Positions 5,207-41,557 of a DNA stretch of 64,000 bases are shown piece by piece. The notes beneath the pieces were generated by a model. The model had not been told where the DNA came from. It worked only from the letters and a program-made list of their open reading frames with translations, and made no database searches. Made by a program: the position numbers and the translations under genes. The stretch comes from Vairimorpha necatrix (lineage: Eukaryota). The DNA lies in NCBI GenBank assembly GCA_036630325.1, contig CP142733.1:744001-808000 (forward strand), given 5' to 3'. The stretch's first letter is position 1. Each line of letters starts with the position of its first letter.

Positions 5207-5986
5207 ATGTTTATTATGATTTTCTACCTATTAATTGTAGGTTGTTCGGATATTCTAGATATTTACAGAACAGACGGTAGAGAAACAGATACAATTTATA
5301 TTGCTCTGTCAGATATATCGTGTATTGGCAGTTATTCAAAAATATTTTTACTTACAGAATTTAGGGAAACGGATAGTAATCATGAATTTTTTCAAATTTT
5401 TGACGGAAGATTGGGAACAAACTATAATACTTGTGCGTATTGTTTTGAAGCACTAACTCAAGAGGAAGTAGAAAATTATAAGTATTTTTTAAATATGAAG
5501 CATGCAACTAGCGACGTTAATGCACCAAGAAATCTAATGAATATTTTCAATAATAATAAACTTATCATGAAAGCGTACTTCCCAAAAAATAATACAAAAA
5601 AAACAAGTTTATATATTGGTGCACTGCACGTCTTCCAAGATCAATCTTCAATGTATTATTCTATAAGTGCAAAGCTCCAATGGTATGGTCATAATTTTTA
5701 TGATAAAATTGTATGGTTAGACAACCACAGATATACTTCTAATATTAGAGCAGACTATATTCCAACTCAATATAGAGAAAATTTTTTTAGAATGGGGAAA
5801 TATATTCATTTCCAGAATTTTATAAAGAACAGACAAATGAATGAATATGAATCGAAAAGTATTTTTTTAAAAATTACCAAACAATCGCCTAGGTCAAATC
5901 TTTGCGGAAATCAATCTTCAAAATTGACCAAAGATTCAAAATCAAAAAATATATTTAAAAGTATATTTACTTCTAATAGAAATTAA
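5207..5986 (+). CDS. Putative secreted protein, related to 1687..2238 and family A
   Basis: CCCT-ATG at 5207 in frame with the listed ORF, hydrophobic MFIMIFYLLIVGC, DIL...IYIAL and AYCFEALTQEE motifs. Confidence 0.7.
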   Translation: MFIMIFYLLIVGCSDILDIYRTDGRETDTIYIALSDISCIGSYSKIFLLTEFRETDSNHEFFQIFDGRLGTNYNTCAYCFEALTQEEVENYKYFLNMKHATSDVNAPRNLMNIFNNNKLIMKAYFPKNNTKKTSLYIGALHVFQDQSSMYYSISAKLQWYGHNFYDKIVWLDNHRYTSNIRADYIPTQYRENFFRMGKYIHFQNFIKNRQMNEYESKSIFLKITKQSPRSNLCGNQSSKLTKDSKSKNIFKSIFTSNRN

Positions 5987-7285: not shown

Positions 7286-7509
7286 TGTGGACTGATGGTT
7301 TCCCATCAGTCCGAGAAGAATGTTTTAGACTAATATTTTTATTATTCTTCATACCCTTCTGGGCATGATTTTCTTTTATAATTTTAGGCGGGAAAATATC
7401 ACCAATTTCCCTCCAAAAATTATACATGTAAAGAGGGAGAATACTTACAGCATGGTATTCTCAGATCTCCAGGGTAATCTTAGTATCACCGGAGATCTGT
7501 CCCCTGACA
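7286..7509 (-). repeat. 3' LTR of Gypsy copy 1
   Basis: Direct repeat of 11071-11294, appears identical. Confidence 0.95.
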
Positions 7510-10500
7510 CTCCCCCTTTCTTTATCGGCTCCCAGGTTTCTAGTTCAAAGTCCATCTTCTTTAGGTCTTTCCAATTCACCGAGAACACTTCATTATTAGG
7601 GCTTATTATTTCATATGCCCCTTTCTTACCCACCTTAGTTATCGTGTATGGGCCCTCGAACTTACTATCCAATTTATTTTTAATCTTGATGAGTGGTTTT
7701 CTTCTTAGCACCACGTCTCCTATCTGAAGTGTCTGTTCTTTAACATCCTTTATTTCACCTTCTCTGGCCTCTCTCTCGGCTTGTAACATAATATCCCGAG
7801 TATGCTTTAATCTTTCAAATATTAAAAAATTATCTTCCAAATATAAGGTTTCTTCTTCGGGATGTTCCCATGTCATAGGTTTTCGTCCATATAATAGCTC
7901 AAAGGGAGAGAGTCCTGTTATTTTTCTGGGAGAAATTCTGTACGCGTATAGAGCCAGTTCGACGTATTCGTCCCAGTCTTTCCACCTTCCATTTATGATC
8001 TTTGCCAATTTGGCCACTAGTGATTGATTGGTTCTTTCTACCGTGCCATTACATTGTGGGTGGTAGGCTGATGTAAAAGATTTTCTTATTTTAAATATTC
8101 TACATAGTTCTTTGACCGTACTGTTTAAAAATTCAAGTCCCCTATCTGAAAGAATTTCATTGGGTGGGCCATGTCTACATATAATCTCCTCGAATATAAA
8201 TTTAGCCACTGTTTTAGAAGTCTTATTTCTTACGGCTTTCGCTTCGCACCATCTTGTCAAGTAATCTGTGGCGACTATTAGATATATTTTACCATTCTCG
8301 GACTTAGGTAGAGGTCCTACCATATCAATTCCTACCAGTGAGAATGGATCTTTTAGGCGAATCCTGTGGTGTTCTCTTGTTATTCTTTTTGAATTGAATT
8401 TTAAACATACCTGACACTTTCCAATCACTTGTTTTATTTCCTCATACATGCCTTTCCATTTGGCTTGGTCAAGAGTTAGAGTGTATGTTGGGAGAGTGCT
8501 TCCATGTCCACATTCTTCGTGGCATTTCAGTATAAGTTCTTTACGACTCTCGGGCGATAGTTCTCGTTCATTTTTATATTTTACTGTGTGAACAAATCTT
8601 GTCAATCCGTCAGCTACAACGTTATCTTTTCCTTTTATGTATTCGATGTCATAGGAGTAATTTTCCAATGTGAGAATCCATCTCATTAGTCTTCCTGTAC
8701 TTTCTTTATAACTTAGCAGCCATTTGAGTGCTTGATGATCAGTTTTAATGGTAAAAGTATTTGTAAGATAAATACGGAATTGAGATATGCTCCATATTAT
8801 CGCCAGGCATTCTTTTTCGGTTACTGTGTAATTGATTTCAGCTGGATTTAGTTTTCTTGAAATGAAATATACAGGCATTTCTGTCTCATCGTATACTTGC
8901 ATTAGCGTTGCTCCTATATAAAGGTTTGATGCATCAGTGTACAAGATAAATTTCTTAGTGAAGTCGGGTAGCTTTAAAACGGTAGAGCTCGTAATGATCT
9001 CTTTTATTTTCTTAACACTTTGTATGGCTTCTTCCGAGAATTCAAATTTTCCTTTCTTAAGGCAATCGTAAATAGGAGCCATTATATCTGTGTAGCTCCT
9101 TATAAATTTTCTAAAGTAATTTATAAATCCAATAAAGGCTCTGGTTTCTTTAAGTGTTGTGGGAATTCTCAAATTTAGACATTTAGTCTGTTGTTCTAAC
9201 GGTATACTAATACCAGTTTTATTTATCGTGTATCCCAAGAACTTCACTGTATTCTTTCCGATTTTACATTTTCCGCAGTTGACCCTCAGTTTCAGTTTGT
9301 TTAGTATTTTAAAAACCGCTTCTACGTGTATTAGGTGCTCTTCAATTGACTTCGAATATATCATTATATCGTCCAGGTAAACTTGTACAAATCTATGTAA
9401 GTAAGGAGATAATATCGAGTTCATTATTTTCTGGAATGTAAAAGGTGCATTTACCAGCCCAAATGGCATTCTAACCCATTGGAAAGTTCCTGATCTACTT
9501 CTGAAAGCTGTTAGATGCCTATCTTTTTTTCGAATTCGTATTTGATGGTATCCCGATTCCAAGTCCAAAACTGTAAATATGGACGCTCCTTGAAGTTCTT
9601 CTATGGTTTCTTCTACGAGTGGGATTGGGTAAATCATCTTCTTTGTAATTTTATTGAGTCTCCTATAGTCTATACAAAATCGTGTATCTCCATTCGGTTT
9701 TTTTACAAGCACTACCGGAGAAGTATAGTCTGACTCACTACCCTCAATGAATCCTTTACTTAGGAATTCTTTTACTTTATTTTCGATTATTTCATTTTGT
9801 TCCGGCGATCTTCTAAATTGAATATTCTTTACCTCTGAAAAGTCATTTGTTATTTCAATCGCATGCTCAATGTCTAAGCACGATTGTTGATTATTATCAG
9901 AAAATACATCGGGATATTTTGAAATAACTTTAATGAATTTTCCCTTTTCATTCTCTGTCATATCTTCTTCTCCAACATCTGCTATTTGAATTTCGGATGC
10001 TTTCGCCGTTGTAGTGCAGATAGACTTAGTTATTTGGGTACTCTTAATTTTATCCAGTATTTTATGTAAGTTTAAGTTCAAGATATCTACTAGGCCAATT
10101 ATTAGGTCTTCTGGTAGATTATTGACTACGTGTGCCTTCAAGACTTTTGTTTTTTTGGTCTTAGGATTTTTTACTAGAAATTCTACTATCCCTTCTGACT
10201 TCACTATACCTCCTATTCCTGCTATGGTCATCGCCTCTTTTTTTGGTTTTAACCCTAATGCTTGGGCTTTATTCCTATTTATGCAGTTAATTTCGGCTCC
10301 GGTGTCAATTAGCGCAGCAATTTTTTCTTTATCTGAAAAAAGATTTATCCTGGCTCGGATATCTGTTGAATTTTTTTTTGTTTCCACTTTACCTATTTTC
10401 AGGAGTAATGATGAATTCGAATTTATCTGAACTGATTTCTTGTTTATAGTTCTATATTCTTTTTTTTCCTGTAAAGGTGTTTCCTGTTGTGGCTTCCTAA

Positions 10501-11212
10501 ATAAGTTTTTTCTTTTCTTTATGTAATTATTTATAAAAGTTTCTTTTTCTTCTAGTAGTTCTAATAACTCTATCCAGTCTTGAGTATCGTTGACTGGCTC
10601 CTTTAAAGCATCCGGAGAGTTTCTTAGTATGGCAATCTTTGATCTTTCAAAGTACTCTGTGTTTCTCTTAGCATACCTCTTTAGGTCATAAGCGTAACTT
10701 ATAATATCGCTTTCTTTTGGACCTTGAACATATAGGTGCATAAACATATCAGTGTTGTCCTCCACTAGTTTCTCCTTTATATATTTTTTTTGGAATTGGG
10801 ATTTGAACGTCTCGAAGTCTGTTATCTCTTCGCCCTCGAAAGCCTTATACCATCTCAACGCTTTGCCCTTCAGTTTGGTTTTGGCAATATCTAGCGTCTT
10901 GGCTTGTGAATAAACGTCTTCAATTTCTCTGAACTGAGATAGAAAGTCTTCGGCTTTACTTAGATCTTCGCCGGTAAATTCTGTCCATCTGTTTTGGAGA
11001 CATAGTTTTTTCATGTAAGAGCAGATGTCCTCGATCTCATTCATCTTATCCTCTTCACCGTTACCACCAATGTGGACTGATGGTTTCCCATCAGTCCGAG
11101 AAGAATGTTTTAGACTAATATTTTTATTATTCTTCATACCCTTCTGGGCATGATTTTCTTTTATAATTTTAGGCGGGAAAATATCACCAATTTCCCTCCA
11201 AAAATTATACAT
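7445..11212 (-). CDS. Gag-Pol polyprotein (PR-RT-RNaseH-IN order, Ty3/Gypsy)
   Basis: Protease ALIDTGAE, RT VRMPFGL/YLDD, RNase H YTDAS/EKECLA/TDHQAL, integrase H..H..C..C, SDRGLEF, NGTVER and GPY. The true start may be Met57 (MNEIEDIC), just after the PBS. Confidence 0.95.
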   Translation of the reverse strand: MYNFWREIGDIFPPKIIKENHAQKGMKNNKNISLKHSSRTDGKPSVHIGGNGEEDKMNEIEDICSYMKKLCLQNRWTEFTGEDLSKAEDFLSQFREIEDVYSQAKTLDIAKTKLKGKALRWYKAFEGEEITDFETFKSQFQKKYIKEKLVEDNTDMFMHLYVQGPKESDIISYAYDLKRYAKRNTEYFERSKIAILRNSPDALKEPVNDTQDWIELLELLEEKETFINNYIKKRKNLFRKPQQETPLQEKKEYRTINKKSVQINSNSSLLLKIGKVETKKNSTDIRARINLFSDKEKIAALIDTGAEINCINRNKAQALGLKPKKEAMTIAGIGGIVKSEGIVEFLVKNPKTKKTKVLKAHVVNNLPEDLIIGLVDILNLNLHKILDKIKSTQITKSICTTTAKASEIQIADVGEEDMTENEKGKFIKVISKYPDVFSDNNQQSCLDIEHAIEITNDFSEVKNIQFRRSPEQNEIIENKVKEFLSKGFIEGSESDYTSPVVLVKKPNGDTRFCIDYRRLNKITKKMIYPIPLVEETIEELQGASIFTVLDLESGYHQIRIRKKDRHLTAFRSRSGTFQWVRMPFGLVNAPFTFQKIMNSILSPYLHRFVQVYLDDIMIYSKSIEEHLIHVEAVFKILNKLKLRVNCGKCKIGKNTVKFLGYTINKTGISIPLEQQTKCLNLRIPTTLKETRAFIGFINYFRKFIRSYTDIMAPIYDCLKKGKFEFSEEAIQSVKKIKEIITSSTVLKLPDFTKKFILYTDASNLYIGATLMQVYDETEMPVYFISRKLNPAEINYTVTEKECLAIIWSISQFRIYLTNTFTIKTDHQALKWLLSYKESTGRLMRWILTLENYSYDIEYIKGKDNVVADGLTRFVHTVKYKNERELSPESRKELILKCHEECGHGSTLPTYTLTLDQAKWKGMYEEIKQVIGKCQVCLKFNSKRITREHHRIRLKDPFSLVGIDMVGPLPKSENGKIYLIVATDYLTRWCEAKAVRNKTSKTVAKFIFEEIICRHGPPNEILSDRGLEFLNSTVKELCRIFKIRKSFTSAYHPQCNGTVERTNQSLVAKLAKIINGRWKDWDEYVELALYAYRISPRKITGLSPFELLYGRKPMTWEHPEEETLYLEDNFLIFERLKHTRDIMLQAEREAREGEIKDVKEQTLQIGDVVLRRKPLIKIKNKLDSKFEGPYTITKVGKKGAYEIISPNNEVFSVNWKDLKKMDFELETWEPIKKGGVSGDRSPVILRLPWRSENTML

Positions 11213-11294
11213 GTAAAGAGGGAGAATACTTACAGCATGGTATTCTCAGATCTCCAGGGTAATCTTAGTATCACCGGAGATCTGTCCCCTGACA
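11071..11294 (-). repeat. 5' LTR of Gypsy copy 1
   Basis: Direct repeat of 7286-7509, followed on the minus strand by the PBS. Confidence 0.95.
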
Positions 11295-12167
11295 CTAACA
11301 TTAACAAATATATATAGTGTAAAGTAAAAAATTAAGAAATCAGTAATAGACCAAATAGAAACTTCAATTACTCGCCATTTGTATGATTTATGTTTAAAAT
11401 AAACATATAGATGATTTATCTATAATAAATTTAATATTCTTTTTTGTCTTCCTTTTTTTCGTTTTGACTTTACAAAAAGAGGGTGTTTTTTTAAAAAAAT
11501 ATTTATAGCCAAAAAACGCATATTGTGGGCCTGTGGCCTAATATAATATTTAATTTTTTTATTAATTGTTGGCCCCATACTGCCTTTCAATGATGTTGCT
11601 TCTATCATCATCTCTTCCACCTTAAACATTTGTATTAATATTTTAACATTAATGCAAACAAGAAAACTAAATGTTAATGTTTTTCACTTTGGAACAAATT
11701 TCTACAATATTCTTTTGTTCGTTTATTTTTTGAGATTCGACATGCGAGGAAAGGACATCTGACATGCATGAGCTAGATATCAGACGCTTTTCATTTTTTT
11801 TATCTTTATAGTTGTTATGCTAACATTAACATCACATACATTGCTTTTGCTTTATAAAAATAAATTTTTTCACAAAACAAAGAAAAAAGATTTTCACACA
11901 TTCTAATACTTTGTATGGTATATAAAACCTCAAATCCCGCATAAATTATTAAGACGATTGCTGTAAAACTAAATATGGAAGCAAAATAAAATGAAAAGAA
12001 TATAAATCAAAATTTTTAGCCTTTAAATCAAGATAATAAATTTATTTTTACGTTAAAATGTTAAACGCTAATAGGTAAATAATAATTAAGAATCTTATTT
12101 GTGTAACGTAAAAGATTGTAATACAATAAAATGATATAACCATCAAAAATAAAAAAAAGATGAGTAT

Positions 12168-15572: not shown

Positions 15573-16364
15573 TTAATTAATGAAATGGCTAGGCAATGTA
15601 TAATTCTTGGAATTGATAACATGCTTCTCTATAAATAAGTTTATTGGGTTAATAAGACTATCATTTTTAACACTCGTAAAATTAAATAAGTTTTCTGATG
15701 AGTTGTAGTTGTATTTCAAAAGATTTTCAATAGTGCTTATACAGTTTTCATAATTATATTTAACCATAAGATGTTTTATCTCATATGGGCAACTTTTTTT
15801 AAATCTTAAATCTATACCATTAGAAATTAGAGTCCAGATATAAATATCATTAGCGATACTTAACTGACTTCTATCCAACAAACTAATTTTATAAACAAGT
15901 ATATAACTTTTCCAAGCCAAAGACATTATAAATCTCTTTATAGGCAACTTTCGCTTTCTTATTTTATCTTTAGTAAGAAAGGCTTTTATATATTGCATAA
16001 AATATTTAGCATTTCTAAAATCTATTGTTGGACCAATTTCATTAAACCTGACAAATATTTTTTTCATTTTTTTGTTAGTAAGAAAAATTTTATACAAATT
16101 TTTTGAAACTGTCTCGATGGATTCCATTTTTTCAGAATTAATATGCTCAATGGCGTCATTTTTATTGTAAGATATATACTTATCACGACAAATAAGAAGT
16201 TGATCTATCAAATTTAGTTCCTCTTTAGCTTTAATTGTATTTTGTTTTCTTACCTGATCATTAAACTTATTTTCAATAATGATACTTATAGACTTGTTAT
16301 TTTGCGTTTCTTCCATTGGGCTTCCTGATAAAGCGTAAGATATAAAAAATAATACAAATAACAT
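15573..16364 (-). CDS. Family-B putative secreted protein
   Basis: CCCTC-ATG, signal peptide-like MLFVLFFISYALS, shares KIRK.KLPIKRFIMSLAW.SY...AN.IYIW.LI.NGID..F...CP and YENC.STI with 52966..53781. Confidence 0.8.
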   Translation of the reverse strand: MLFVLFFISYALSGSPMEETQNNKSISIIIENKFNDQVRKQNTIKAKEELNLIDQLLICRDKYISYNKNDAIEHINSEKMESIETVSKNLYKIFLTNKKMKKIFVRFNEIGPTIDFRNAKYFMQYIKAFLTKDKIRKRKLPIKRFIMSLAWKSYILVYKISLLDRSQLSIANDIYIWTLISNGIDLRFKKSCPYEIKHLMVKYNYENCISTIENLLKYNYNSSENLFNFTSVKNDSLINPINLFIEKHVINSKNYTLPSHFIN

Positions 16365-18167
16365 GAGGGATTTAAAAATTTTGTTTTATATATATGAAAT
16401 AAAAAAGCAGTATAAAAAGAAACAAGAACAATAATTTTTATGAGCAACCTCTCATTATGAGGAGCTTTAACTAAAAATTATACTTAATTCGTCATATCAT
16501 TAGTTTAATAAATTCATAATGCATCATGTAATGTACTAAATGATTAAAAAATCAATCTAAAATAGAAAGTTTTATGTATAATATAAAATTAAAAAAATTA
16601 ATACATGCTTCTTTAATCTATATTTCTTAATTTATAAATTTATATTCAAAGATTGATCCAAGAGTACCATTTAAAATTGAATTAATATATATATTCTATT
16701 ATTGATAATATACTCAAAATAATTGTTATGTAAATACATTCATTTTAAAATTAAAAAATAATGGAAAAGTGATTAGCCTGAGATATTTATCAATATTTAT
16801 TATGTAAAAAACATTTTATATCAAATTTAATTATGATCTGTACAAACGTGGAGTAAACAATGATCATAGATAAATTATAAATGTAAACTAAAAAGTTTGA
16901 ATAAAAAACCCAAACTAGAAAGAAACTATAAAACAAAATGACATTGTGATTGTATTTATCAAATAGTTCTGTGGAACCGTACAAGAGTTTTATCGATTGA
17001 CAAAAAAATATTGTTTTTATTATGACTTATAGATCAGTCTTACTCATGTTTTATTCTACTTCTTATGTATCCTTGAAGTTACAACATTTTTGGATTACAT
17101 CTATCACTTTTGGTTTTCTCTTGCTATTCTAGCAGTCCGTACCAGTTTAAAACTATAGACTTTATAGTGTTTTATTACAAAATTATAAAACAACCATCAA
17201 ATTACTTACGCATAAATCATCTATATGTGCTAATGTTGTGTATAATATATTTTGTGATTTTTTTGCTTAAATATATACATGATTGCTTAATGTGAAAAAA
17301 ATAAGTCCAGGTTGGCATAAAATATTTGTAGAAATCAAGAAAAACAATGGTTATATGCATTAGTTAACATGTTTTAAAGATAAATATATGTGATTAAAGC
17401 AAGGAAGTGTCTTTTTGTTTGATATATATTAAGATATAAATTTCCTTTTCAGCTAAAAAATATTTACTATTTTTTTCTAAAAAATAAACACAATAATATG
17501 ATTTGAAGCATACGAATAATGTAACTATTTTTTTGTAAATACGATTTAACTAATTTCAACATGCACACGAAAGTTGTATTTGAATTATATTTATCTAAAA
17601 AAAACCCTTTGAAATGTTTTTAATATTTTCAATTTTGATATATATTGTCTTATAATTTATTTATAATTATCTTTTTAGTAATATTATATATATTTGTTAG
17701 TATTTTTGTATATCATCTTAACAGTCACACAAATAAATTAAACGTAAGATTTAAGACCTGAAAGCGCAAACCCCACATAGAATTATATCGAAATCGTTTG
17801 TTTTCCAATATAATTTTCATTGCAAACGCAATTTTTCATATAAAAACACAAGCTTATAGTATAAATTAAAATAAATTTTTATTAATCTTATACAAGACAA
17901 TTAACTTCAATAAATAATTAAATTATATTATATGTTGATTTTTTATATAAAATAAACGATTATTTAAAGCTAAAGGGTTTCTATGTGTATAAACAACAAT
18001 ACCTTTCAAGAGAGAATAATGAAACTTGTTTAAGACATGTTTTTATGCATATAAAGAGGTTATTAAGCAAACTATAAATTAGTAAGAAAATATAATAAAA
18101 ATTTTGTTGGGTGGTTTTAATTTGTGTATATTATTTAAATTTATATGTTTTAGATTTAGATATAAAC

Positions 18168-18290: not shown

Positions 18291-18688
18291 TTAGTAAGTA
18301 AAAAAATTATATTATACCCCAATAAAATATTTTTATTAAATTTTAGATCCAAAATATTCTAAAATTATGTTAATATATTTAACATTTTCTATTATACTAC
18401 AAAATAAAAATTATACATGCAAATTGAAAGAAGATTGAATCTAAGTTTTAGTAATATGCTTTACATATAAATACATGAGTAAGTATATATATTTCGAGTG
18501 TTTTAATACTTTATTTAACATAAGCACCTTTTTAATTATTTTTTTACACTACAATTTCTTCTGACTTGTCTAAAAAATAATAATAAAGAATTTATTGTAA
18601 AAAATGCATGATACGATCAATAACGTCTTAAATATAATATGCTATAGTTATGTGTCGTTGCTTAAAAAATAATGTTATTTTAATCCTT

Positions 18689-19447
18689 ATGTTTTTAAGA
18701 TCCATATTATTTTTCAACAAAATACAACATGTATTTGCCAACTCCGCAAATGACGTCTCTATCGTAGAAATATCAACCAACAGAAATCTTGATGATCGTA
18801 AACAATGTAAGCGAGTACTTTTCGAAGAAAACCCAATGTTGATACTTGAAACTTATAATTTACATGAAGCAGAATCTATAGCGAAGATTATATACGAAGT
18901 TTTCTTAGACAAATTAAAATTTCCAATACATGTTAAACTCGATTATACAACGAAAGATACAAGATCGGAATATAAAATATTAAAAAAAGATTTAAGGTTC
19001 TCTTCCTATTGGTATTATCTCAATAATAATTCGTTTACATTATTGTATAATGGTAAGGAAAAAATTATTTATGAAATATTGAGTTCATTTGCCCAAAAAA
19101 CCTCTAAACTTTATGATTTTATATTATGTTGTCATTTCAATGTGAAAAAAATTAATTATTTTGAGCTTAAAGAAGTGATCTATATTTTAATGACGGTAAA
19201 AATGAGAAATAGACCAAGTTACAAGGTCGAGCAAGTTTTTGATAATGAAGATTATAAAAATCTCTTAAATAATATAGGAGATATCTTTAAAAGTGATGTT
19301 ACTAATTTCGGAATAGAAGAGGATAAAGTAAAAAAAACACAAACGGATTTAAATGAAATCCCGCAAAGGAGAATGAATCTCCGTCCTTTTTTATTCAATC
19401 CTTCGTTACTATTTAACCCCCTGCATTTGCTCGTAGGTAGAATTTAA
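18689..19447 (+). CDS. Hypothetical, possibly secreted protein; weak resemblance to family B
   Basis: Long ORF in AT-rich DNA. Likely start CCTT-ATG at 18689 (MFLRSILFF...VFA). ESIAKIIYEVFL resembles ETVSKNLYKIFL / NSAAKLMYKIFL of family B. Confidence 0.65.
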   Translation: MFLRSILFFNKIQHVFANSANDVSIVEISTNRNLDDRKQCKRVLFEENPMLILETYNLHEAESIAKIIYEVFLDKLKFPIHVKLDYTTKDTRSEYKILKKDLRFSSYWYYLNNNSFTLLYNGKEKIIYEILSSFAQKTSKLYDFILCCHFNVKKINYFELKEVIYILMTVKMRNRPSYKVEQVFDNEDYKNLLNNIGDIFKSDVTNFGIEEDKVKKTQTDLNEIPQRRMNLRPFLFNPSLLFNPLHLLVGRI

Positions 19448-19621
19448 TTAAAATTCTTTTCAGTAAAACTGAAAATTATCAAGTTTTTTGTATTATTCTA
19501 ACATATTTGTATATTTGCACATAAGTTTGTAAAATTTTCTTTTGTCATGTTAGTTCAATATATATAAAATCAAAACGACTGATAGGTAAACTGCCTCAGA
19601 ATTATTTTTTTCTATATAAAA

Positions 19622-19670
19622 TGTTATATATCCTTATTATTTTTACCCCTCATTATGGAAAATAAACACA
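19622..19670 (+). repeat. 5' LTR (49 bp) containing TATATA, CCCC motif, ATG and AATAAA
   Basis: TGTTATATATCCTTATTATTTTTACCCCTCATTATGGAAAATAAACACA. Confidence 0.9.
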
Positions 19671-22600
19671 TGGGGGCGATACCAGAAAATGGGTCTACAA
19701 AGGAGGACCGTGGCCAAGAGGCTAGAATATTATTAAAAGAGGTTAAAAGGATTGTTTATGAGTTGTTTTTAGAGAAAATTGATGAGTGTGGATTTAAATT
19801 AGAAATTTTTAGGAGAGGTTCTATTTTATTGAGAAATTTTATTGTTGAGAGGATCTCGCAAGAGAGTAGTTGGAAGGAAATTGAGGAAAAATTAGAGTTG
19901 CTAGCTATTCAGGAGGAAAAGGAACAAGTGAGAAAAAAAGAATTTGAAGAGTTGTCCCTAGCGTTATGGGCTAAATTTGAGGAGAAGAATAAGTTGTCTC
20001 GTGAGGAAAATAAAAAGAATATGCGTTGCTACAATTGTGGGAAGTTAGGCCATAGTGTTAGATTTTGTAGGGGAATGAGGCGAGATTCTGAAGACAGAAG
20101 AAATAAAAGTAGTTTTAATTATGTTGGTAAATGTAAAGTGCAATTAGACTTAGAGGGTAAATGTGATGACGATTCCAATTCGGACAAATGTGATTATTAT
20201 AATGTTGATGGTGGGAAACGTAAGAAGAAAAATTTAGGGGATATACAAGATTATAGCAAAAGGGACAATAATAAGAGAGTTCTGTTGAGAAGGGATGTAA
20301 GAGGCATCGCGTATTTAGAGGAGATTATTTCACGGGTAGGAGGAAGAGAGGATGAAGATATTAGTTTTTGTAAGGTTGAAAAATGTATTATCAAGACTCA
20401 AGAAGGCAAGAAAGTTGTTAAAAAAGGGCAGGCTATAGCTCAGGCTTTGTTGAAGAAGACGGAAGATTATATTAATAGTTTGGAAAGAAGAAAGATAATT
20501 AGAAGGTCGACATCTGATTGGAGAAATCCCATTAGAGCGATTGAGAAACCGAATGGTGATATAAGATTAGTAAGTAATTTAATTGCTCTTAATGACATTG
20601 TAGAGAAGGATCCTTATGAGTTAACTAGGATAAGAGATGTTATTAGAAGTACACAGGGATCTGAATTTTTTACCGTGATAGATCTAAAGGAGGGGTTTTA
20701 TAGTATTGAGATTGAAGAGAAGGATAGGTTTAAGACGGCTTTTGAGTTTAATAAAAAGGTATACGAGTGGAATTCGATGGTCATGGGGTTTAAAAACTCA
20801 CCGCAGATATTACAAAGAATAATGAATGGGATTTTTGAAAAATTTATTGGTAAGGGAATCGAAATTTATATGGACGATATTGTGATTCATAGTAAGACAA
20901 GAGAGGGTCACGACAAATTGTTGAAAGAGGCTGTGGATATATTAGAGGAGAATAGTATGAAAATTAATTTGGCTAAGGTTCAATTATGTAAACGAGAGGT
21001 GATGTTGTTAGGAGTATCAGTTAATGGCAAGGAGATACTGCCATCTGAAATAAAGCAAAATGAAGCGTTAGAATTTCCCAAACCGGAGTGTGTATCAGAT
21101 GTTAGGAAGTTTCTTGGGCTGGCTGGATGGTTTAGAAATCATATTGATAATTATGCAAAACGTACATTGGCGTTGACGGATTCTCTTAAAGGACGAGGAA
21201 GTAATTGGAAATGGACAGAAGAAATGGAAAAAGAATATATTAGTTTAAGGGAAGTGATTAGGGATTTAAAAGGTTTAGCAATTGTTAATTATAATAAGGA
21301 ATTTTTGTTACGCACGGATGCGAGTAATGTTGGAATGGGTGCTGTTTTAATGCAGGAAGATGATCAAGGTAATTGGGTACCAGTACAGTGGGCATCAAAA
21401 AAGTTTACGCCTACGGAAACGAGATATGGAATCAGTGAGAAGGAGATGTATGCAGTCTTTTGGGGAATTAAAAAGTTTGAATATGAACTACGTGGAAGAA
21501 GATTTAGGGTAGAAACTGATCATAAGGCATTGATCGAGATTAGAAATAAACCAGCATTTAACAATAATAGAATTAACAGGTGGATTGAAAAGATTCAAGA
21601 GTTCGACTTTAGCATTGAATATAGAGAGCCTAGTACCATGGTTGTAGCAGATGCACTGAGTAGGGTACATGAAAATGAGAAAACGCTAATGAATAAGGAG
21701 AGAAGTATTAAACAGGCACAGGGTAAATGGGACAAGCATGTTAAAGTTGTTGATGGGAAGGAAATTTGGGTATTTGACTCTGGTAGAGAAGCGGAGATTC
21801 CAAAGAAAGAATTGCGTGAAGGTTTAATTGTCAATGCTCATGAAAATTTGGGACATAGAAGTTTAGGATCAGTGTACTATGCAATGAAGTTTGAATTTTA
21901 TTGGCCGGGTATGAAGAAGGATATCGAGGATGTTTTAAAGAAGTGTGAAGTTTGCCAAATATATAATAGGAAAAAGAGTGGTGGTTGTGATTTTGTTAGT
22001 TCAAGATTTTATTTGGAAAAGGTTGCTTTGGATTTGATTGAGTTTAGAGATTTAGGGAAATATGTGTTGGTCGTGATTGATTATTATACTAGGATCGTTT
22101 GGGGAAAAGTAATAGAGGACAAACGCGGAAGCTCGGTTGTAGGATTTTTAAAACAGTTGTGTGGATCAGGAATGAAACCGGTAGAAATAATTACTGACAA
22201 CGGTAAAGAATTTAGTAATGAATATATGAGGAATTGGTGTTCAGAGGGAAATGTATTACATAGGAAAGTAAGCGTAGAAAGTCATAGAAGTAATGGAAGA
22301 GTGGAAAGGGTAATAGGAACCATAAGAGAAGGAATATTGAAAGATGATGCTGTGGATTTTGAAGCCAAGGTTAATAGATGTATATGGCGTTATAATAACA
22401 GCTATCATGAAGGGTTGAGATGTACACCGTTTGAGGCCTCAAGAGACGAAACGGGCCATGTTATGATCGAGAATGGACCTGAAGGATTTTATAGTAGGAG
22501 GTTTGTGGCTCGCAAAAGAGAGAAATTCTATAAAGGTCAGAGAGTTAGGGTAGCGAAGAAAGAGAACTTATCGGGTTGTAGTAAGTATGAGAAAGGAAGG

Positions 22601-22729
22601 TTTTTAGGATATGGTGTTATCAAGGAAGTTTGCGGAGGTGACTCATACTTAGTTAGTTTGGAAAATGGTAGGATCGTAAAAAATCGGCATTATGATTTAA
22701 AAGGTCTGCTTGGGATTAATGAGTTCTAG
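19655..22729 (+). CDS. Polyprotein: short Gag with CCHC knuckle, RT, RNase H, integrase; no protease motif seen
   Basis: CYNCGKLGHSVRFC, IDLKEGFY/MGFKNSP/YMDD, TDAS/EKEMYAV/TDHKAL/VADALSR, HENLGH..CEVC, ALDL/TDNGKEF/NGRVER. Confidence 0.93.
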   Translation: MENKHMGAIPENGSTKEDRGQEARILLKEVKRIVYELFLEKIDECGFKLEIFRRGSILLRNFIVERISQESSWKEIEEKLELLAIQEEKEQVRKKEFEELSLALWAKFEEKNKLSREENKKNMRCYNCGKLGHSVRFCRGMRRDSEDRRNKSSFNYVGKCKVQLDLEGKCDDDSNSDKCDYYNVDGGKRKKKNLGDIQDYSKRDNNKRVLLRRDVRGIAYLEEIISRVGGREDEDISFCKVEKCIIKTQEGKKVVKKGQAIAQALLKKTEDYINSLERRKIIRRSTSDWRNPIRAIEKPNGDIRLVSNLIALNDIVEKDPYELTRIRDVIRSTQGSEFFTVIDLKEGFYSIEIEEKDRFKTAFEFNKKVYEWNSMVMGFKNSPQILQRIMNGIFEKFIGKGIEIYMDDIVIHSKTREGHDKLLKEAVDILEENSMKINLAKVQLCKREVMLLGVSVNGKEILPSEIKQNEALEFPKPECVSDVRKFLGLAGWFRNHIDNYAKRTLALTDSLKGRGSNWKWTEEMEKEYISLREVIRDLKGLAIVNYNKEFLLRTDASNVGMGAVLMQEDDQGNWVPVQWASKKFTPTETRYGISEKEMYAVFWGIKKFEYELRGRRFRVETDHKALIEIRNKPAFNNNRINRWIEKIQEFDFSIEYREPSTMVVADALSRVHENEKTLMNKERSIKQAQGKWDKHVKVVDGKEIWVFDSGREAEIPKKELREGLIVNAHENLGHRSLGSVYYAMKFEFYWPGMKKDIEDVLKKCEVCQIYNRKKSGGCDFVSSRFYLEKVALDLIEFRDLGKYVLVVIDYYTRIVWGKVIEDKRGSSVVGFLKQLCGSGMKPVEIITDNGKEFSNEYMRNWCSEGNVLHRKVSVESHRSNGRVERVIGTIREGILKDDAVDFEAKVNRCIWRYNNSYHEGLRCTPFEASRDETGHVMIENGPEGFYSRRFVARKREKFYKGQRVRVAKKENLSGCSKYEKGRFLGYGVIKEVCGGDSYLVSLENGRIVKNRHYDLKGLLGINEF

Positions 22730-22756
22730 TATGAGACTACCGTCTTGGAGGGGGGA

Positions 22757-22805
22757 TGTTATATATCCTTATTATTTTTACCCCTCATTATGGAAAATAA
22801 ACACA
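22757..22805 (+). repeat. 3' LTR (49 bp)
   Basis: Identical to 19622-19670, preceded by the PPT and followed by TSD TAAAA. Confidence 0.9.
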
Positions 22806-25636
22806 TAAAATAAAGTCTATTAAAAAAAAATATTAATGGTATAAATGTCGTATAAATATAAGGTGTAAAACAAATAAAATTCGTATAAAAAAGCTATTAT
22901 TGGGTTTAATTTCTTCAATTTACCTCCACTGCCGTGCACTCAATCTGGTCCCACCACCTTCTAACTACCTCTAATATGTTCTTGAATCCAGATCCTCCTT
23001 CGGCGAGTCCCACCCGGCGTTAAAAGGAGATGCTCTTCAGAGTATTTTTTATAATTCATATTATAATGTAAACTTCGGTGCTAGTTGATAGGCCGATGGC
23101 ATTAACATAATTGATGTGGTATGATTTCACAATTAACCCCAAGTAATGACGTATAGTATTATTTGAACTTTGTTTTTGTACATTAAGCCATATTCATTCG
23201 CTTGATATCAAACTTTAAGTAAGTTATTCTGGGTAATTATTCCTATTTCGATTAGTGTTATTTTTTATTTTTCTTGACTAGTACTAATTTACAGCCTTAT
23301 TAAATTGTAGCTTTATATCAGTGTTGATCATCGTGTCTGACCGAATTTCTGCGTATAATTAGCTATTTTCTTGCACATTGTGGTTTCGTATTGTCTTATA
23401 TGATCTTAGTCCATACTTCAAGAATAGCTAAAGTGAGATGAATATAACAGCTTCATTATGTCTTCTACTATAATAAAATGATAGCATACGATCACAACTT
23501 GTTTAAATGTGATCATCTTTCTAAAGTTAATAATTTTTATTATTGCTTTGATATTACAATGGAATCTAAAGTCTTGAATACAGAATTATCTACAGGAGTA
23601 ATAAAAATTTTGTTATAAACTAAAATTCGTCAAAGCAAGAAACCAAATTTTCGTTTTTACGAGGTAAAAAGATCTTTTTTGAAGAAAAAATGTGTCCTAG
23701 TCGTAATGAAATCAAAAAAAATATGTATATGGTGAAAGATGCAAAATACTGCTAAGTAATGAATACATTGGGCGCAAAATTATATTATATAGATCTCCAA
23801 TATAAATATGAAAAAATAAGATTGAAAGTTGGTTAAATACTGTGTCTATTCTGTTCAATGAATATTTGCAAAAAATTGTAATAATTGGGTCGACATGAAC
23901 ATGAAGACAGATGTAAAACGAATCAAAAAAAATACGAAGGTATCAAAGCTAAGCGAAATTGAAAGTTTTAGAAGAATAAAATAGAATTACGTCGGTTGAC
24001 AACCTTTCTCAAATACAATCAGCAAAACTATCTAAATACGAATTATTTGCTAGTGAAAATGGGTTATTTTAATAAGATAAAAATTTTAATTTCATAGTGC
24101 TTTCATGGCCACGTTCTACGTAGCACGCAAGATGCAGAAAAGGGCTGAAATGTTTTTTTTAAAAAGTTGTCTTATCAATTAACAACTCCTAAGAATGGCC
24201 GATTTACACCACGCTAGATCTTTGGAGATTAACAGAGAAAATCTTGAATCATTACGCGAAAGGAGTCCTTAATATGATTTCTTCTTCTAATAATGTTTCT
24301 AGCAGTTTAAACAAACAAATTATCGCCAAATTAATTTATTGTGTTTTCTAAAAAAATTTATTTCGCAATAAATTGCCTAAATCGACCCAGAAATTCACAA
24401 TTAAAACAAGAAATATAAAAAATATTAGATTTTCTATTAAACAAGTTAGAATGATTTATAAATCGAAATCATTGTTTTTTTAATAAGTGCACACAATTGG
24501 ATTAACGAAATACATTATAAATTCCGTTTGAAAAACAGAATTTATTTTTAGCAATTTACAATCAGTATATAGTTTTATGTGAGCCTTTTATTCTTTTAAA
24601 TTGTATTTAGACGAAAAAATACAAGAGGGAAATCCCGAAGAATATTTATCACGACTTTAGGTATAATGTGAAATGTTTTCTTTCTTTGATGGCGGAAACT
24701 AGTAAAGAGTTACTATTAAGACTTATTTAAATCATATAATGGTTAAAAAAATATTAAAATAGTCCCGGCCTTCGGACTACAAAAATCTGACAATATCTAA
24801 TTAATTAGAAAAAAAAACAATACTAGAACAAGGGTCATCATGATTTTTATGAATTTATTTAGAAAACAGAATCAAATTATAAAAATTTTCAACTTAGTGT
24901 TTTATATCAATCAAATAAGAGAAGTTCTATTTGTAATTTTTAACCATACATGTGACACCAAAAGAGAATGATGCCTTTTTATAAAAATGAAGGCAAAAAT
25001 AAATTTAAAAACAAATGTAGTAAATGAGAAATAAATACATTTTTTTCATTAGTTTTGAAGGTATCCTTATAGTGTTGTCTCTACACTCAAAATCACGGAG
25101 CATATGAATAATGTGAGAAAAATGTACTAAAATTAAAAAAAATAAACGCTGTTATAATATTAAAAATAAGTTTTGAAAATTTTATCCATCATAATCATGT
25201 GGAGATAAAAATCATACAACAAACTGTTTCTTTTTGAAAAAAAAAATTAAAAAATTATAAGATCTTGTAATACTACCGAGAAATGAAATACAATCGTGCC
25301 TATTCCAAGAATATGGTTTTAAAATCAAATCATTCAAAGTTTAGTATTTTTGTTAAAAATCCCGAAAAAAGTAAAATAAATATGCAATAGTTATTATGAT
25401 AGTCTAAATTTCAAAAAATAATAACTTAAATTGTGATCACAAATTAAATGACTACTTTAATGAACAAAAAAATCTATAGTTAATTAGACTCTAATTTTTA
25501 GTTAATGAAACATCTTTTCTTTTCTTATGTCTCTATTTCAGTCTTGATATGCTTCTCTTGTAAGTAGAGATGATTAAACTCCCCGTCTCTTGTTTTTTTT
25601 TTCATATTTATCAAGAACTTCTGATATTCTATATTT

Positions 25637-29205: not shown

Positions 29206-29855
29206 GGTTATATTTTTAGCTAACTATATTTATCTATCAAAACGTTTTATAATGGACTATTTTTAAAAGTATACTAGATATATGAATCATGAAAATGCAA
29301 TTTCAAAAAAAAGATCTATATCAATTATTTATATTATCTTTTATAAATCTTATAATACATTTATTTACATCTGAAACATATTATCAAAAATTAAAATTTT
29401 AAAGTATTTATAAAATTTATAAAATAATCGTGATTTTATATTTTAAGAAAAAATGATTGTAAATTTGTTACAGTTAGACCATTTAAAATTTTTGAAATAT
29501 GATATTGTACACTACAACTTTATGTTTGTTTTATTCACGCCCCTGTCAAAAATCCCAGTTCATTAATTAACGTCAAAGATCTCAATTAGTTACGTTTGGA
29601 TGGATATTTTCATTCTTATTATACGTTTTCAAGACAACAATCTTTCTAGCATCTTTTAATTATATTTTTTATAAAGAATTTAATTTTTTTTAAAATTTTG
29701 CAGATTAAAAATAATCTTTTTTATATTAATTTTATCTCATACACAACAAAATTTCAAAAGTTCTAATAGAATAATTTTAAAATGGAAAATAACATGATCT
29801 TTATTAAAAACGTTTTTCATCTTTTTCTATTTAATGAAAAAAATTTAATAACCCC

Positions 29856-30644
29856 ATGTGGATTGTCTTTTTTCATGTTGTTGCTAAATTATGTACTGAC
29901 AATATATTTGTAGTTCCAAACTATAATAATGCAAATGTTTACATTTCATTAAAACATAGTGATTTACCAGGAACTTATATCATTACTGAGTTAATAAATG
30001 AAGATACTGTTAGTGGATGCGTAAAAACTTATAATCATAGATCGAAATCAGTGGGGCAAACTATACCACATTATTTCAAATCAATTACTTCAGAAGAAAC
30101 AAATAGTTTAGAACAATTTTTAAATGGTCATAAAATTTGTAACACCAATGATAATGAGAAAGTTGAATCGTTCTTAAAAAGTGACTATGTAGCAGTAGCA
30201 AAAATTCCATTATTTAAAAATAAAATATATTTTATTGATGTGATGAAATCAAAGAATCTATCAACCGTCGATATTTACTCTACAAGTAAAAAACTCACCT
30301 TTAATGAATTAAGTAATTTTTATACCGTAGAATTGTCCGCTCGATATTATTTTATGTCAGATAATGTATCTTCACCTATTCCTTCGTTATATAAAAATGG
30401 ATTACTAAGATTTTCTAATTGCCCAAATATAAACAATGATTTAAAAAACAACAATGAAAGGTTAAGATATCAGAAATCCGGAGAATGCACAATACATGAA
30501 AATCAACGGATCAATAACAATTACCTTAAAAGTCAAGAAATTTCAGAAACTAATATTCAAAAATGCAAAAGAATTATATCGGATCGAACATTACTATTCG
30601 CAACGAATTTTTCGAAAAAAATAAAAAAAACATTCAATTTCTAA
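29856..30644 (+). CDS. Family-A putative secreted protein
   Basis: CCCC-ATG, hydrophobic N-terminus, IFVVPNYNNANVYISLKHSDLPGTYIITEL, VAVAKI, VMKSKN. Confidence 0.85.
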   Translation: MWIVFFHVVAKLCTDNIFVVPNYNNANVYISLKHSDLPGTYIITELINEDTVSGCVKTYNHRSKSVGQTIPHYFKSITSEETNSLEQFLNGHKICNTNDNEKVESFLKSDYVAVAKIPLFKNKIYFIDVMKSKNLSTVDIYSTSKKLTFNELSNFYTVELSARYYFMSDNVSSPIPSLYKNGLLRFSNCPNINNDLKNNNERLRYQKSGECTIHENQRINNNYLKSQEISETNIQKCKRIISDRTLLFATNFSKKIKKTFNF

Positions 30645-35323: not shown

Positions 35324-35475
35324 GGTTAAATTGCGATGTTACCCCCCCCCCCCACCCCTAAAAAAATAAAAAAAAAAGGGGAAAAAATAAAAAAAAGGGG
35401 AAAAATAAAAAAAGGGGAAAAAATAAAAAAAGGGGAAAAAATAAAAAAAGGGGAAAAAATAAAAAAAAGGGGAAA
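35324..35475. repeat. Left Merlin TIR with C-run and about six 17-19-bp A-rich/GGGG subterminal repeats
   Basis: Reverse complement of 41558-41688, repeat unit AAAAAATAAAAAAAGGGG. Confidence 0.9.
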
Positions 35476-35606
35476 CAAACTTTATTCAAGTAATTCAAAA
35501 TCAAATTCGGGCGCTAAATCATAATTTAAAAATAATATATTATCAATCTCAAAGAAGCATAACATTCTTTCAAGTAGTGATTCTCTATAAATTAACTTAA
35601 AACGAG

Positions 35607-36447: not shown

Positions 36448-39400
36448 TTATGGGCCAATTAGTTCACGTAGAACTACATTTTTGACATTGCCCCTGTTTC
36501 CCCCCAACTTGACTCTCAAGTTTTCACTCTTCTTCACTCTTGACAAAGCTACGTATAATTGACCATGAGAAAATACATCCTCAGGCAAATACACTCCCAC
36601 TTTGTCAAAAGACTGTCCCTGTGCTTTATGTATTGTCATCGCATATGACAATACCACAGGAAACTGTCTTCTTTTAAGTACAAACGGAAGAAGAGTGTCA
36701 CTTGGCATCATGTCTATCTTTGGTATAACAGCAAGGGTGCCCCTTCCCCTTCCTGTTATTATTTCACCTAAGATGTAATTATCTTTAAGACCTTTTATCT
36801 TCAATCTGGTCCCATTTAATAATCCATTCTTAGGATCAATATTGCGTAACAACATCACTATTGCCCCTATCTTCAATACTAACTTATGTGGAGGAAGTCC
36901 TGATGGCTGTTGCATGTTCAAGAACTCAAGAGGAAATCTCAGTTGTTCTTCGATATCCTCTGATTCTATAGCATCAGAACTCACATATACCCTCGAAGGT
37001 CCTTTGAGAAGGTTTAACACTTTGGCATTCAATTCATTTGCATGTTCATTTTTGCTCGTTAAGATAATCTTATCAAACAAAGAATCATCACCTGCTTCAA
37101 TTTTGATTGTTCCAAAAATGCTATCGACTATGTCCCCTTCTTCAAGATATTCTTTGGGTATCTCCACACATCCTTTACTATCTCTAGTACGCCCCTCACC
37201 TATATCTAACAACCACTTATTAAACTCCAATTGATTATAAGATCTCATGTTCGTTTCAAGCTTTAGTACACAGACATGTACCCAAAGTCTTGAACTAATT
37301 AATGAGTTCTCGATGATATCATTTGGAGTACCCTTCATTACAATGGTTGATGTCTGTCTAAAGTCACCACCCAACAATAAGGTCTTCCCTCCAAAGATAT
37401 CATTATTATTACAGAGTCTTTTAAGCACCTCATCTATTGCGTCCAATGCATGTTTTGACATCATCGAAACTTCATCTATCAGCAATAATGAGGCCTTTAT
37501 TATTCTCTCTGCTTCTGGAGTATTTTGCTTTAGTCTAGATACGCTGGTCTCTGTCAAAGGAACAGGAAGTTTCATACAACTATGCATTGTTCTTCCATCC
37601 TTTAATAAATCTGCAGCAATACCTGTGGTTGCCATCTGTATTGAAGATTTTTTACTCTTACTTAGATACTCGATCAGGACATTATATAAATATGTCTTTC
37701 CTGATCCAGCTGGTCCATCTAAAAAGAATAAATTGCCTCTTTTATCTATATTATCTGTAATTATATCAAAGGCATTTCTCTGGTTTTCATTCAAAGAGGA
37801 TATCATCTGATCTAGATCTTGTTCATTATCAAAGACGGCTCTTTCATTCTTGATATAGTTAATCGGCTCATCTAAACCCAGAGCATTTAAGCTCCATCCA
37901 TGAGCATTAACTATATCTTTTAATCTACTTAATATTTCGTCTCTACTATTCTGATCTAGATCTTCAGACATATCTCCAAGATACTTCTCAAAGAGTTCTT
38001 TGGTATTTTTAGGCTTATTGAAAGCACAAATATATCCAAACAATGCTCTTATTATTGATGGGGACTCGGTTGATACAGCCTCATCCAAAGCCCTTTCCCA
38101 TTCTTTATCATCTTGAAGAAGTCCTCTTTCTTCCACCGCCTCTGCGAAAGAACTGTAAACTACACCATTTACAGTTCTCAAATCCTCATATGACTTAACC
38201 CCCTTTACATTGATCAATAGAACTCTGAGGCTAAATCTTTCCTTCTCTATTGGAGATACAGAATAAAGTCTAGTAATTATCTTACTATACTTATTCTTTC
38301 TCCTAATCCATTCTCCCCTTTTATATGTATAGTGATAGGGTATCTCACTATACGAAAATCGATGTGCTCCTTCATCAACTTCATTCAATTTGAAGTAGGC
38401 TAAAAGAGGAGTCTGTCTAAGATCGGACAATCTAACGGCTTCCTCTTCTCTGCCTTCTTCGAAAGTGATCAATTGTTCTTGTGGAAGATGCACAGGAAGT
38501 CTATGGATCTTATGAGATCTTCCATGCATCTTGTATTCCATTAATCTCCAGGTAGCCTCTGGTGCTGAGACATATCTGGAATTCACAAAATGATCAATTT
38601 CATTGTTGTCAGTTATTCTCATTTCAGCACAATCAAATCCCTTGTAAATATACTTAAAAATATACTTTACTGACTTGATAGAAGTACAAACTTCTACATT
38701 GATATGACAATTGTATTTTTCAAGTAGATAAGCATTATAAGGGACCACGTTAGCATTAGTAACAATGTTGCCCCTTACATTGTACTCGGCCCCTCTAGAT
38801 CGTCTGTACTCAGGATATCCGTCTTTATCGATCCTTGTTTCAGTATTATGTTCCTTAGGATATTCCTTAGTGCAGAGACCATTTTCCATACATGGACTTG
38901 TCAAGTTACTTAGTCCACATGGTCCATGAATCATATGTTTTGTTACACAGGTGTGTAACACTTCATTTTCCATGGGCGATGGTATTTCTGCACTTACAAA
39001 CTTATCTATCATATTTTCATCCCGAATCTTGTCCTTTAACATTATCAATATATGTGCATGAGGAAGTCCACGTTTTTGAAACTCAATAGAATAGACATGA
39101 GCCACGACTTCCCCAAACACTCTTCCTGCCAAAATCTCTTCCATCATACTTTTCAACTTTAAGTTAAAGACCTTTGCTACCAAATCTGGTCTATCAACTG
39201 CTGTCTGTCCCTCAAATAGATTCTCATTAATCTCCTTCCATTTGGGATTGCAAGTCATAGTTATAAAAAGATCGGGCTTGCCGAAATTTCTTACAATTGA
39301 CATTGCATCATGGTATCTCTCTCTCATATTTCTTGGAGATCCTTGAAAACTTGATGGTAAGATCACGGGCTTGGCAGAACTTTCTGACCCATTATTTACA

Positions 39401-41369: not shown

Positions 41370-41550
41370 TGTTACCTTTGTTTGAGCATTTTCTCCCATT
41401 TCGTCGTAAGTAACAACGATATTTGTATAATTATTTCTAATTTTGGTCATGGGTGTCATGCACTTATTGCACATTGGCACCTTTAATATATTTTTTTCAA
41501 GAAGAAATAAAAATAATTCCTCTTTTTTATATATTAATTTTCTAAAATTT
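41370..41550 (-). pseudogene. Merlin transposase N-terminal zinc-ribbon part, upstream of the Helitron
   Basis: Reads ..ELFLFLLEKNILKVPMCNKCMTPM.., then after a 1-nt shift near 41430, YKYRCYLRRNGRKCSNKGN-I, which joins in frame to YKESIFKSSRL when 36239-41369 is removed. Confidence 0.8.
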
Positions 41551-41557
41551 TTTATTT

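Follow-up and report, generated by a model that had tools for sequence, protein, structure and literature searches.

Background

In textbook accounts, an aspartic protease and a capsid-forming Gag count as universal and essential in Ty1/copia, Ty3/gypsy and BEL/Pao retrotransposons, retroviruses and caulimoviruses. The present analysis concerns a long terminal repeat (LTR) retrotransposon of Ty3/gypsy stock which encodes no protease, located at positions 19622–22805 (+ strand, 3184 bp) of a 64,000-nucleotide stretch of the Vairimorpha necatrix genome (assembly GCA_036630325.1, contig CP142733.1, positions 744,001 to 808,000 of the forward strand; hereafter the window, in whose numbering all positions are given). 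Among described elements, the gypsy groups that Parisot et al. 2014 (PMC4202319) reported as specific to microsporidia share with it their microsporidian hosts and the presence of one polyprotein instead of separate gag and pol; the main text of that report makes no mention of a protease. The Nbr elements of Nosema bombycis were described as 'nearly all' having the arrangement Gag-protease-reverse transcriptase-RNase H-integrase (PMC2474625, paraphrasing Xu et al. 2006), and an exception to this arrangement may already have been noted among them. Neither a published protease-free microsporidian gypsy clade nor such short LTRs (49 bp) in an autonomous element was found in the literature, one supplementary file of Parisot et al. 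and Xu et al. 2006 lying outside that search.

The results reported below lead us to regard the element at 19622–22805, with high confidence, as intact and recently mobile, and as one copy of a miniature lineage of Ty3/gypsy stock that has spread through microsporidia.

A complete polyprotein without a protease

The element is structurally complete and contains a single open reading frame (ORF) of 1024 codons plus stop on the + strand (19655..22729), with its first ATG at 19655 and its stop codon at 22727–22729, inside a frame open from stop to stop over 19586–22729. The ORF makes up 96.6% of the element and encodes a polyprotein of 118 kDa, and no ORF longer than 80 residues was found in the other frames of the element. 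All domains lie on the + strand: a helical N-terminal domain resembling a Gag/capsid lobe (residues 20–122, 19712..20020), a nucleocapsid-like CCHC zinc knuckle (residues 124–138, 20024..20068), a charged linker predicted to be disordered, where a protease would sit (residues 139–212, 20069..20290), reverse transcriptase (RT; residues 213–455, 20291..21019, with YMDD present), RNase H (residues 520–650, 21212..21604) and integrase (residues 717–1024, 21803..22726), the last consisting of an HHCC finger, a DD35E core and a C-terminal domain. Pfam matched RVT_1 at residues 296–455 (E 5.9e-31), RT_RNaseH and RT_RNaseH_2 in the RNase H region, and Integrase_H2C2 and rve over residues 717–870; the order RVT_1, RT_RNaseH, Integrase_H2C2, rve is that of Ty3/gypsy. 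A non-autonomous element resembling large retrotransposon derivatives or terminal-repeat retrotransposons in miniature (LARD/TRIM) was ruled out by the complete RT-RNase H-integrase.

The window protein was aligned with 22 full-length relatives. In this 23-protein alignment the RT catalytic residues including YMDD, RNase H residues D555, E595, D622 and D666, and integrase residues H729, H734, C764, C767, D793, D848 and E884 were invariant, in agreement with the original prediction, made from the window sequence, that the motifs of all three enzymes are complete. The knuckle, with the spacing CX2CX4HX4C at residues 125–138, was also invariant at C125, C128, H133 and C138 (23/23); Pfam zf-CCHC matched 15 of the 23 members, and the window copy scored 17.8 bits, under the cut-off of 20.8. 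Conservation was weak over the N-terminal 120 residues, and the region after the knuckle varied in both length and sequence. Conservation returned about 30 residues ahead of the Cys-x-Ile-x-Thr block of RT. The conserved RT block begins near residues 213–244, upstream of the Pfam match and earlier than the RT start predicted at about position 20520, which leaves a linker of only about 75 residues.

No protease family and no gag family was detected when the 1024-residue ORF was searched against Pfam at E ≤ 1, and a member-by-member search at E ≤ 0.1 found a retropepsin or gag family in none of the 23 aligned members. Peptidase_A17 matches in three of the 23 (E ≥ 0.047) were regarded as noise. 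As predicted, about 120 residues (123 by our count) precede the knuckle, and the linker, 46% of which is D, E, K or R, lacks the D[ST]G motif; the motif occurs once in the whole protein, at residue 708, immediately ahead of the zinc finger of integrase. Only two of 43 clade proteins had a D[ST]G before RT, one in a serine-rich run and the other 13 residues before the RT lead-in, and in neither protein do the surroundings resemble those of a protease. The distance from the knuckle to the RT anchor was 55–133 residues in 33 of 34 measured clade proteins and 193 residues in the remaining one (P0032); about 30 residues of this distance are the conserved RT lead-in, and in several relatives merely 55–57 residues separate knuckle and RT. 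Because this distance is too short, a retropepsin of about 90 residues cannot fit in many members.

Outside the knuckle, no D, S, C or H residue of the N-terminal region qualified as a conserved candidate in the 23-protein alignment. A divergent protease fold in the linker, raised beforehand as an outcome that would speak against the absence of a protease, was not found; AlphaFold2 predicted the linker to be disordered, with confidence (pLDDT) below 50 at residues 145–179 and 194–216. No retropepsin appeared in the fold-match lists, although such lists do not count as evidence of absence. In conclusion, the coding capacity of the element does not include a protease.

Relatives and loss of the protease

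A protein search identified about 40 close relatives with 42–99% identity, mostly of 1000–1040 residues and covering 99–100% of the query, including proteins from Nosema granulosis, Vairimorpha necatrix and Enteropsectra breve. No precomputed protease or gag family was found among these relatives, which bear public names such as 'endonuclease', 'reverse transcriptase' and 'Transposon Tf2-9 polyprotein'. The next-best proteins, at no more than 36% identity and over RT-integrase only, were ordinary Ty3/gypsy polyproteins.

In a FastTree phylogeny of 111 rows, 31 protease-free, knuckle-bearing rows fell on one side of a branch with a support of 99, and the same grouping was recovered with IQ-TREE (LG+G4, SH-aLRT 100) from 48 and 56 rows in quick, unrooted searches; the trees included no Ty1/copia or BEL outgroup. 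The protease-free clade nested among Ty3/gypsy polyproteins in both analyses, with branch lengths of 0.2–1.0 within it, and a protease-bearing clade (the metagenome contig L003 and the proteins P0201–P0207) was its sister with a support of 99–100 in both trees. Lack of the protease thus marks a whole clade with 31 full-length or nearly full-length relatives, as an RT phylogeny had been proposed to reveal, which contradicts the alternative of a one-off in-frame deletion in this copy.

The nearest protease-bearing relative, L003, is 33% identical to the window protein over residues 244–1015. It has 66-bp LTRs with the ATG within the LTR and a CCC motif ahead of it, starts with the same Met...Met-Ala at the junction of LTR and primer-binding site (PBS), and encodes a Gag of about 210 residues without a knuckle, followed by a DTG retropepsin (Pfam RVP, positions 6–97 of 101) and RT. 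P0201–P0207 are proteins of 950–1136 residues on contigs of 3.4–6.6 kb. The two clades share the RT-RNase H-integrase lineage (33–46% identity), a single ORF, a very short LTR with a CCC motif and an internal ATG, and an N-terminal start with a conserved Met-Ala on the LTR/PBS junction; the sister clade differs in keeping a retropepsin of about 95 residues and a knuckle-less Gag of about 210 residues, its proteins measuring 1090–1136 residues versus about 1000–1040 in the protease-free clade. A full-length retropepsin match was obtained in all six scanned sister proteins (E 1e-6 to 0.03), which shows that Pfam remains sensitive to the protease across this degree of divergence. Two of the eight sister sequences (the seven proteins and L003), P0203 and P0206, have the active-site triplets DLG and DRG instead of DTG; these may be decaying copies, or constraint on the protease may be relaxed in this compact lineage. 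L003 also contains an extra ORF of 192 residues without a Pfam match between integrase and the 3' LTR (L003:3338-3916).

In hhalign comparisons of the N-terminal profile, only the RT lead-in, directly after the linker of the window protein, aligned; its counterpart in the sister clade comes right behind the protease (E 8e-4 to 8e-3, probability 5–25%), and for this reason the linker is taken to be the former protease site. Since the protease-free rows form one clade and the equally compact sister keeps its protease (6/6), a single loss of the protease is concluded. One further protein, P0208 (1022 residues), has neither protease nor zinc knuckle, a Gag of about 175 residues and a low-complexity linker of about 90 residues, and in the IQ-TREE phylogeny its branch lies between the sister clade, which has the protease, and the protease-free clade, which has the knuckle. 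The position of this single protein in an unrooted quick tree suggests that loss of the protease came first, and that shrinkage of Gag and gain or retention of the knuckle came later.

Sixteen Logan contigs with full-length relatives are just 25–163 nt longer than their ORFs, which fits tiny LTRs throughout the clade. Scans of metagenome and genome contigs gave few usable relatives, and L001, L004 and L083 were decayed. In viral contigs only weak integrase-like matches were found, and the exact LTR-PBS word was absent. Copies of the clade were also found on short contigs (L081, L082 and L083) binned in metagenome-assembled genomes labelled Clostridium sp. and Turicibacter sp.; this placement is probably binning contamination from gut samples.

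Mobility and selective constraint

Contigs from public sequencing runs were compared with positions 19400–23000 of the window. They left the element for unrelated sequence exactly at 19670/19671, 22805/22806 and 22755/22756, and run X2 contained at least three different downstream continuations beyond the element, indicating insertions at different sites. Runs X1 and X16 each contained one contig of 3165 nt, which equals the LTR-to-LTR period of 3135 nt plus 30 and would be explained by an assembly cycle closed through the LTR. The variant LTR of X1 keeps the layout of CCCC, ATG, AATAAA and an ACA end, followed by TGGGGG. Sequencing depth in X1 was 59 over the element and about 10 over the flanks, a ratio which is not readable as copy number.

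Among the variant sites listed in the ORF (39 of 134 sites), 27 were synonymous and 12 non-synonymous. The ORF contains 589 synonymous and 2483 non-synonymous sites, from which a ratio of about 1:4.2 would be expected, giving a rough ratio of non-synonymous to synonymous rates (dN/dS) near 0.1; this value is indicative only, as the variant sample is partial, non-random and mixed in copies and strains. The listed variants in residues 1–240 comprised 16 synonymous and seven non-synonymous changes, and seven of eight in residues 139–212 were synonymous, the latter counts being very small. Because the contigs enter different flanks at the LTR edges and the variants are mostly synonymous, the lineage is, as judged from these sequence comparisons, mobile and under constraint, its N-terminus included.

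The N-terminal domain and the linker motif

The 'tiny Gag' of the original prediction was confirmed as one small helical domain with a long helix and one knuckle. An AlphaFold2 model built with a 26-row alignment showed three short helices (residues 22–39, 44–54 and 57–66) and one of 50 residues (73–122), with pLDDT above 90 over residues 20–122 and about 82 over the knuckle. In an exhaustive structural alignment against 48,161 PDB chains, the top match of this domain was the Arc C-lobe (Z 6.4, root-mean-square deviation 2.5 Å, 64 residues). Retroelement capsid lobes, namely those of Arc, RSV, MOAP1, Ty3, dArc1, HIV-2, MLV, PEG10, HERV-K and M-PMV, accounted for 14 of the best 50 matches, ranks 1–3 included, with Z 4.7–6.4. 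The folded part ahead of the knuckle amounts to only about 100 residues, and its closest fold matches, those to Arc, RSV and Ty3, are each to one capsid lobe and weak (Z 5.1–6.4), below the level deemed reliable for helical models. The proposed fold check of the N-terminus returned no retropepsin fold and a weak resemblance to a single capsid lobe. With moderate confidence, residues 20–122 are considered to be capsid-lobe-like on the basis of the predicted structure, without assignment to either of the two lobes.

Sub-threshold Foldseek rows included weak matches to nucleocapsid, the Ty1 capsid C-terminal domain and retroviral Gag, and ESM Atlas scores of 0.85–0.88 to zf-CCHC, Retrotrans_gag and Ty3_capsid clusters are leads only. 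A phmmer search of residues 1–235 against 1.8 billion representatives returned 38 matches, which were short family fragments or unrelated knuckle proteins; no longer protease-bearing protein with the N-terminal domain was among them.

Under the strict pattern, 10 of 36 clade proteins have a motif of the form NK-x3-5-[NE]Y[LVMY] that lies 5–13 residues behind the knuckle; about nine others have it in looser form. In the window ORF it occupies residues 150–157 (about 20102–20125, + strand). One subclade has [KR]YTFDRV in its place. The motif could be a cleavage site or a binding site.

Element boundaries and LTR signals

The 5' LTR (19622..19670, + strand, 49 bp, TG..CA ends) is 100% identical to the 3' LTR (22757..22805, + strand, 49 bp), which was identified by repeat comparison and by the break points of the public-run contigs. 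The pentamer TAAAA, read from the sequence at 19617..19621 and again at 22806..22810, forms a 5-bp target-site duplication. A PBS-like stretch starting with TGG lies directly 3' of the 5' LTR and within the ORF (19671..19685, + strand), and a polypurine tract, GGAGGGGGGA, adjoins the 3' LTR (22747..22756, + strand). No tRNA gene was found in the window. The 49-bp LTR sequence occurs exactly twice in the window, which is AT-rich (GC 0.21–0.36); none of 100 shuffled controls gave a match, and no solo LTR was found in the window.

The LTR contains, in order, TTATTTTTACCCC, 5 nt, the ATG and AATAAA, and ends 4 nt further on. The A/T-rich run followed by CCCC (19637..19649, + strand), 5 nt before the ATG, is by motif likeness a candidate microsporidian CCC-type promoter or start signal, and the AATAAA (19661..19666, + strand) has its 3' LTR counterpart at 22796–22801, which is a candidate poly(A) signal. 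PMC2803860 describes CCC-like motifs that, in several microsporidia, follow A/T-rich runs and stand just 5' of the start codon, as well as very short 5' untranslated regions in E. cuniculi and the use of AAUAAA by microsporidia; PMC11592040 gives the Nosema ceranae motif as TTTTTTTACCCC. By analogy, transcription of the element would start a few bases 5' of the ATG. The R region would then measure roughly 16–22 nt, with R plus U5 of about that same length, and the first six codons and the PBS would be translated. In the 23-protein alignment, the conserved second Met-Ala/Gly of the relatives fell on the LTR/PBS junction. The 49-bp LTR may accordingly be described, by the same analogy, as little more than a putative host-type core promoter, a start codon and AATAAA.

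Other elements in the window

Two 4011-bp copies of a Ty3/gypsy family are present at 7286–11296 (− strand) and 59597–63605 (+ strand), with identical LTRs of 224–226 bp and Gag-protease-RT-RNase H-integrase ORFs of 1266 residues that differ by three residues. As the original prediction stated for a neighboring Gypsy element, they have a protease motif (IAALIDTGAEINC at residue 314), together with Pfam matches to gag-asp_proteas, RVP and Retrotrans_gag. This 4-kb family sits far from the protease-free clade in the trees, and no close relative of it was found in the protein collection, the best match having 40% identity over 33% of the query.

A Helitron-type ORF of 1443 residues (36448–40779, − strand; Pfam Helitron_like_N and PIF1 helicase) is flanked by 18-nt A-rich/GGGG tandem repeats at 35364–35489 and 41534–41643, which are mutual reverse complements. 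A family of ORFs of about 270 residues, with 65–81% DNA identity, occurs at 5165–5986, 15573–16385 (− strand), 18638–19447, 29838–30644, 52966–53787 (− strand) and 56757–57563; one of its copies ends 170 bp upstream of the protease-free element.

Discussion

How an element without a protease completes its cycle was considered under several explanations. That the 118-kDa polyprotein works uncleaved, without self-processing, is in our judgment an even bet, and it is the reading we prefer. In this reading, one all-in-one protein would bind its own RNA, and perhaps multimerize on it, through the knuckle and the long helix; RT-RNase H would copy the bound RNA, the disordered tether of variable length giving RT-RNase H-integrase freedom of movement; and the integrase attached in cis would insert the DNA, in a ribonucleoprotein-style cycle rather than inside a closed capsid. 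The more far-reaching proposal, that the whole ancient and still mobile clade completes its cycle with neither polyprotein processing nor a closed capsid, the protein acting in cis as a ribonucleoprotein, is tentative and somewhat doubtful. Several points weigh against the uncleaved protein. Protease-defective Ty1, Ty3 and retroviruses are dead, a 1:1 ratio of Gag to Pol is unusual, and protease-bearing elements are present in the same window. The estimate of selection uses only part of the variant sites. The NK..NY motif could be a cleavage site. The capsid-lobe match, at Z ≤ 6.4, is of a strength that helical models often reach by chance, and no Foldseek match of the N-terminal model in PDB or BFVD reached E ≤ 0.001. 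By hhalign, the N-terminal domain showed no significant similarity to L003, to P0208 or, with probabilities of 0.1–1.3%, to the Gag of the sister clade and that of the 4-kb family.

Cleavage by a protease from elsewhere would take two forms, each of which we consider unlikely. A retropepsin of co-resident LTR elements, for example the 4-kb Ty3/gypsy family, might cut the linker and the RNase H/integrase junction in trans; two near-identical Gag- and protease-bearing copies lie in the same window, the short motif in the linker after the knuckle is partly conserved, and protein borrowing is a familiar trait of non-autonomous LTR elements. However, the 4-kb family is distant (no more than 35% identity, on a far branch), a retropepsin and its sites tend to evolve together inside one family, and the clade could have kept its ORFs intact over such deep divergence only with a donor present in each host. 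The lack of close protein relatives of the 4-kb family, while the protease-free clade is found in at least three named genera, weighs weakly against this particular donor. Alternatively, a host protease, such as a Ddi1-type retropepsin-like enzyme or another endopeptidase, might cut the linker and free a small Gag-like protein from RT-RNase H-integrase. All members have a long, disordered linker that is accessible, and its mostly synonymous variants and recurring post-knuckle motif fit a recognized site, but its sequence is otherwise very variable, the variant counts are small, and neither a candidate enzyme nor a site was identified.

The N-terminal 240 residues might conceal a protease that is divergent or not of the aspartic type, and retropepsins are indeed short and fast-diverging, many ordinary Ty3/gypsy matches listing no Pfam protease family; yet this is very improbable, given an all-helical region followed by knuckle and disorder in the AlphaFold2 model, the shortest knuckle-to-RT distances, the detection of the protease by Pfam in every scanned sister, and the lack of conserved catalytic candidates outside the knuckle. 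Least probable of all is that this copy is dead, having arisen from a normal element by internal deletion. Such deletions occur often in LTR elements, but the layout is common to 31 relatives at 40–60% identity, and the ORF, the identical LTRs, the intact target-site duplication, the bias toward synonymous variants and the differing flanks in public runs all speak against a dead copy; it is refuted for practical purposes by the alignment and trees of the relatives.

The clade may serve as a natural experiment on the minimal machinery of LTR retrotransposition, in which it can be asked whether RT-RNase H-integrase acts while tethered to a nucleocapsid module. If neither processing nor a capsid is used, this would be the most reduced autonomous LTR retrotransposon described, and protease and capsid shell would be dispensable for LTR-type retrotransposition. 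It also illustrates how far streamlining reaches in compact microsporidian genomes, with 97% of the element coding and LTRs cut to host-style expression signals. Common LTR finders have a default minimum LTR of about 100 bp, and the family has for this reason probably been missed or mis-annotated in microsporidian genomes.

Comparison with known systems

Retroelements that replicate without an element-encoded protease include DIRS, Ngaro, hepadnaviruses and LINEs, and ORF1p of LINE-1 forms a ribonucleoprotein through a coiled coil and a nucleic-acid-binding module. These differ from the element described here in having other or no integration enzymes and other termini, and they are not close to it in RT phylogeny. 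The PR-RT protein of foamy viruses and the RT-integrase species of Ty3 provide a precedent for active unprocessed fusions, but spumaretroviruses and Ty3 still encode a protease and need it for at least one cleavage.

With canonical Ty3/gypsy elements, such as yeast Ty3 and the 4-kb family of the window, the element shares the order RT-RNase H-integrase, TG..CA LTRs, a 5-bp target-site duplication, a polypurine tract and a CCHC knuckle. It differs from them in the lack of an aspartic protease, in a Gag of about 140 residues versus 250–400, in LTRs of 49 bp versus 226 bp in the neighboring 4-kb family, and in a start codon inside the LTR and a translated PBS-like stretch. On these features, the element would count as an offshoot derived from Ty3/gypsy stock rather than a canonical member, since it departs from that group in the protease and probably also in the two-lobe capsid.

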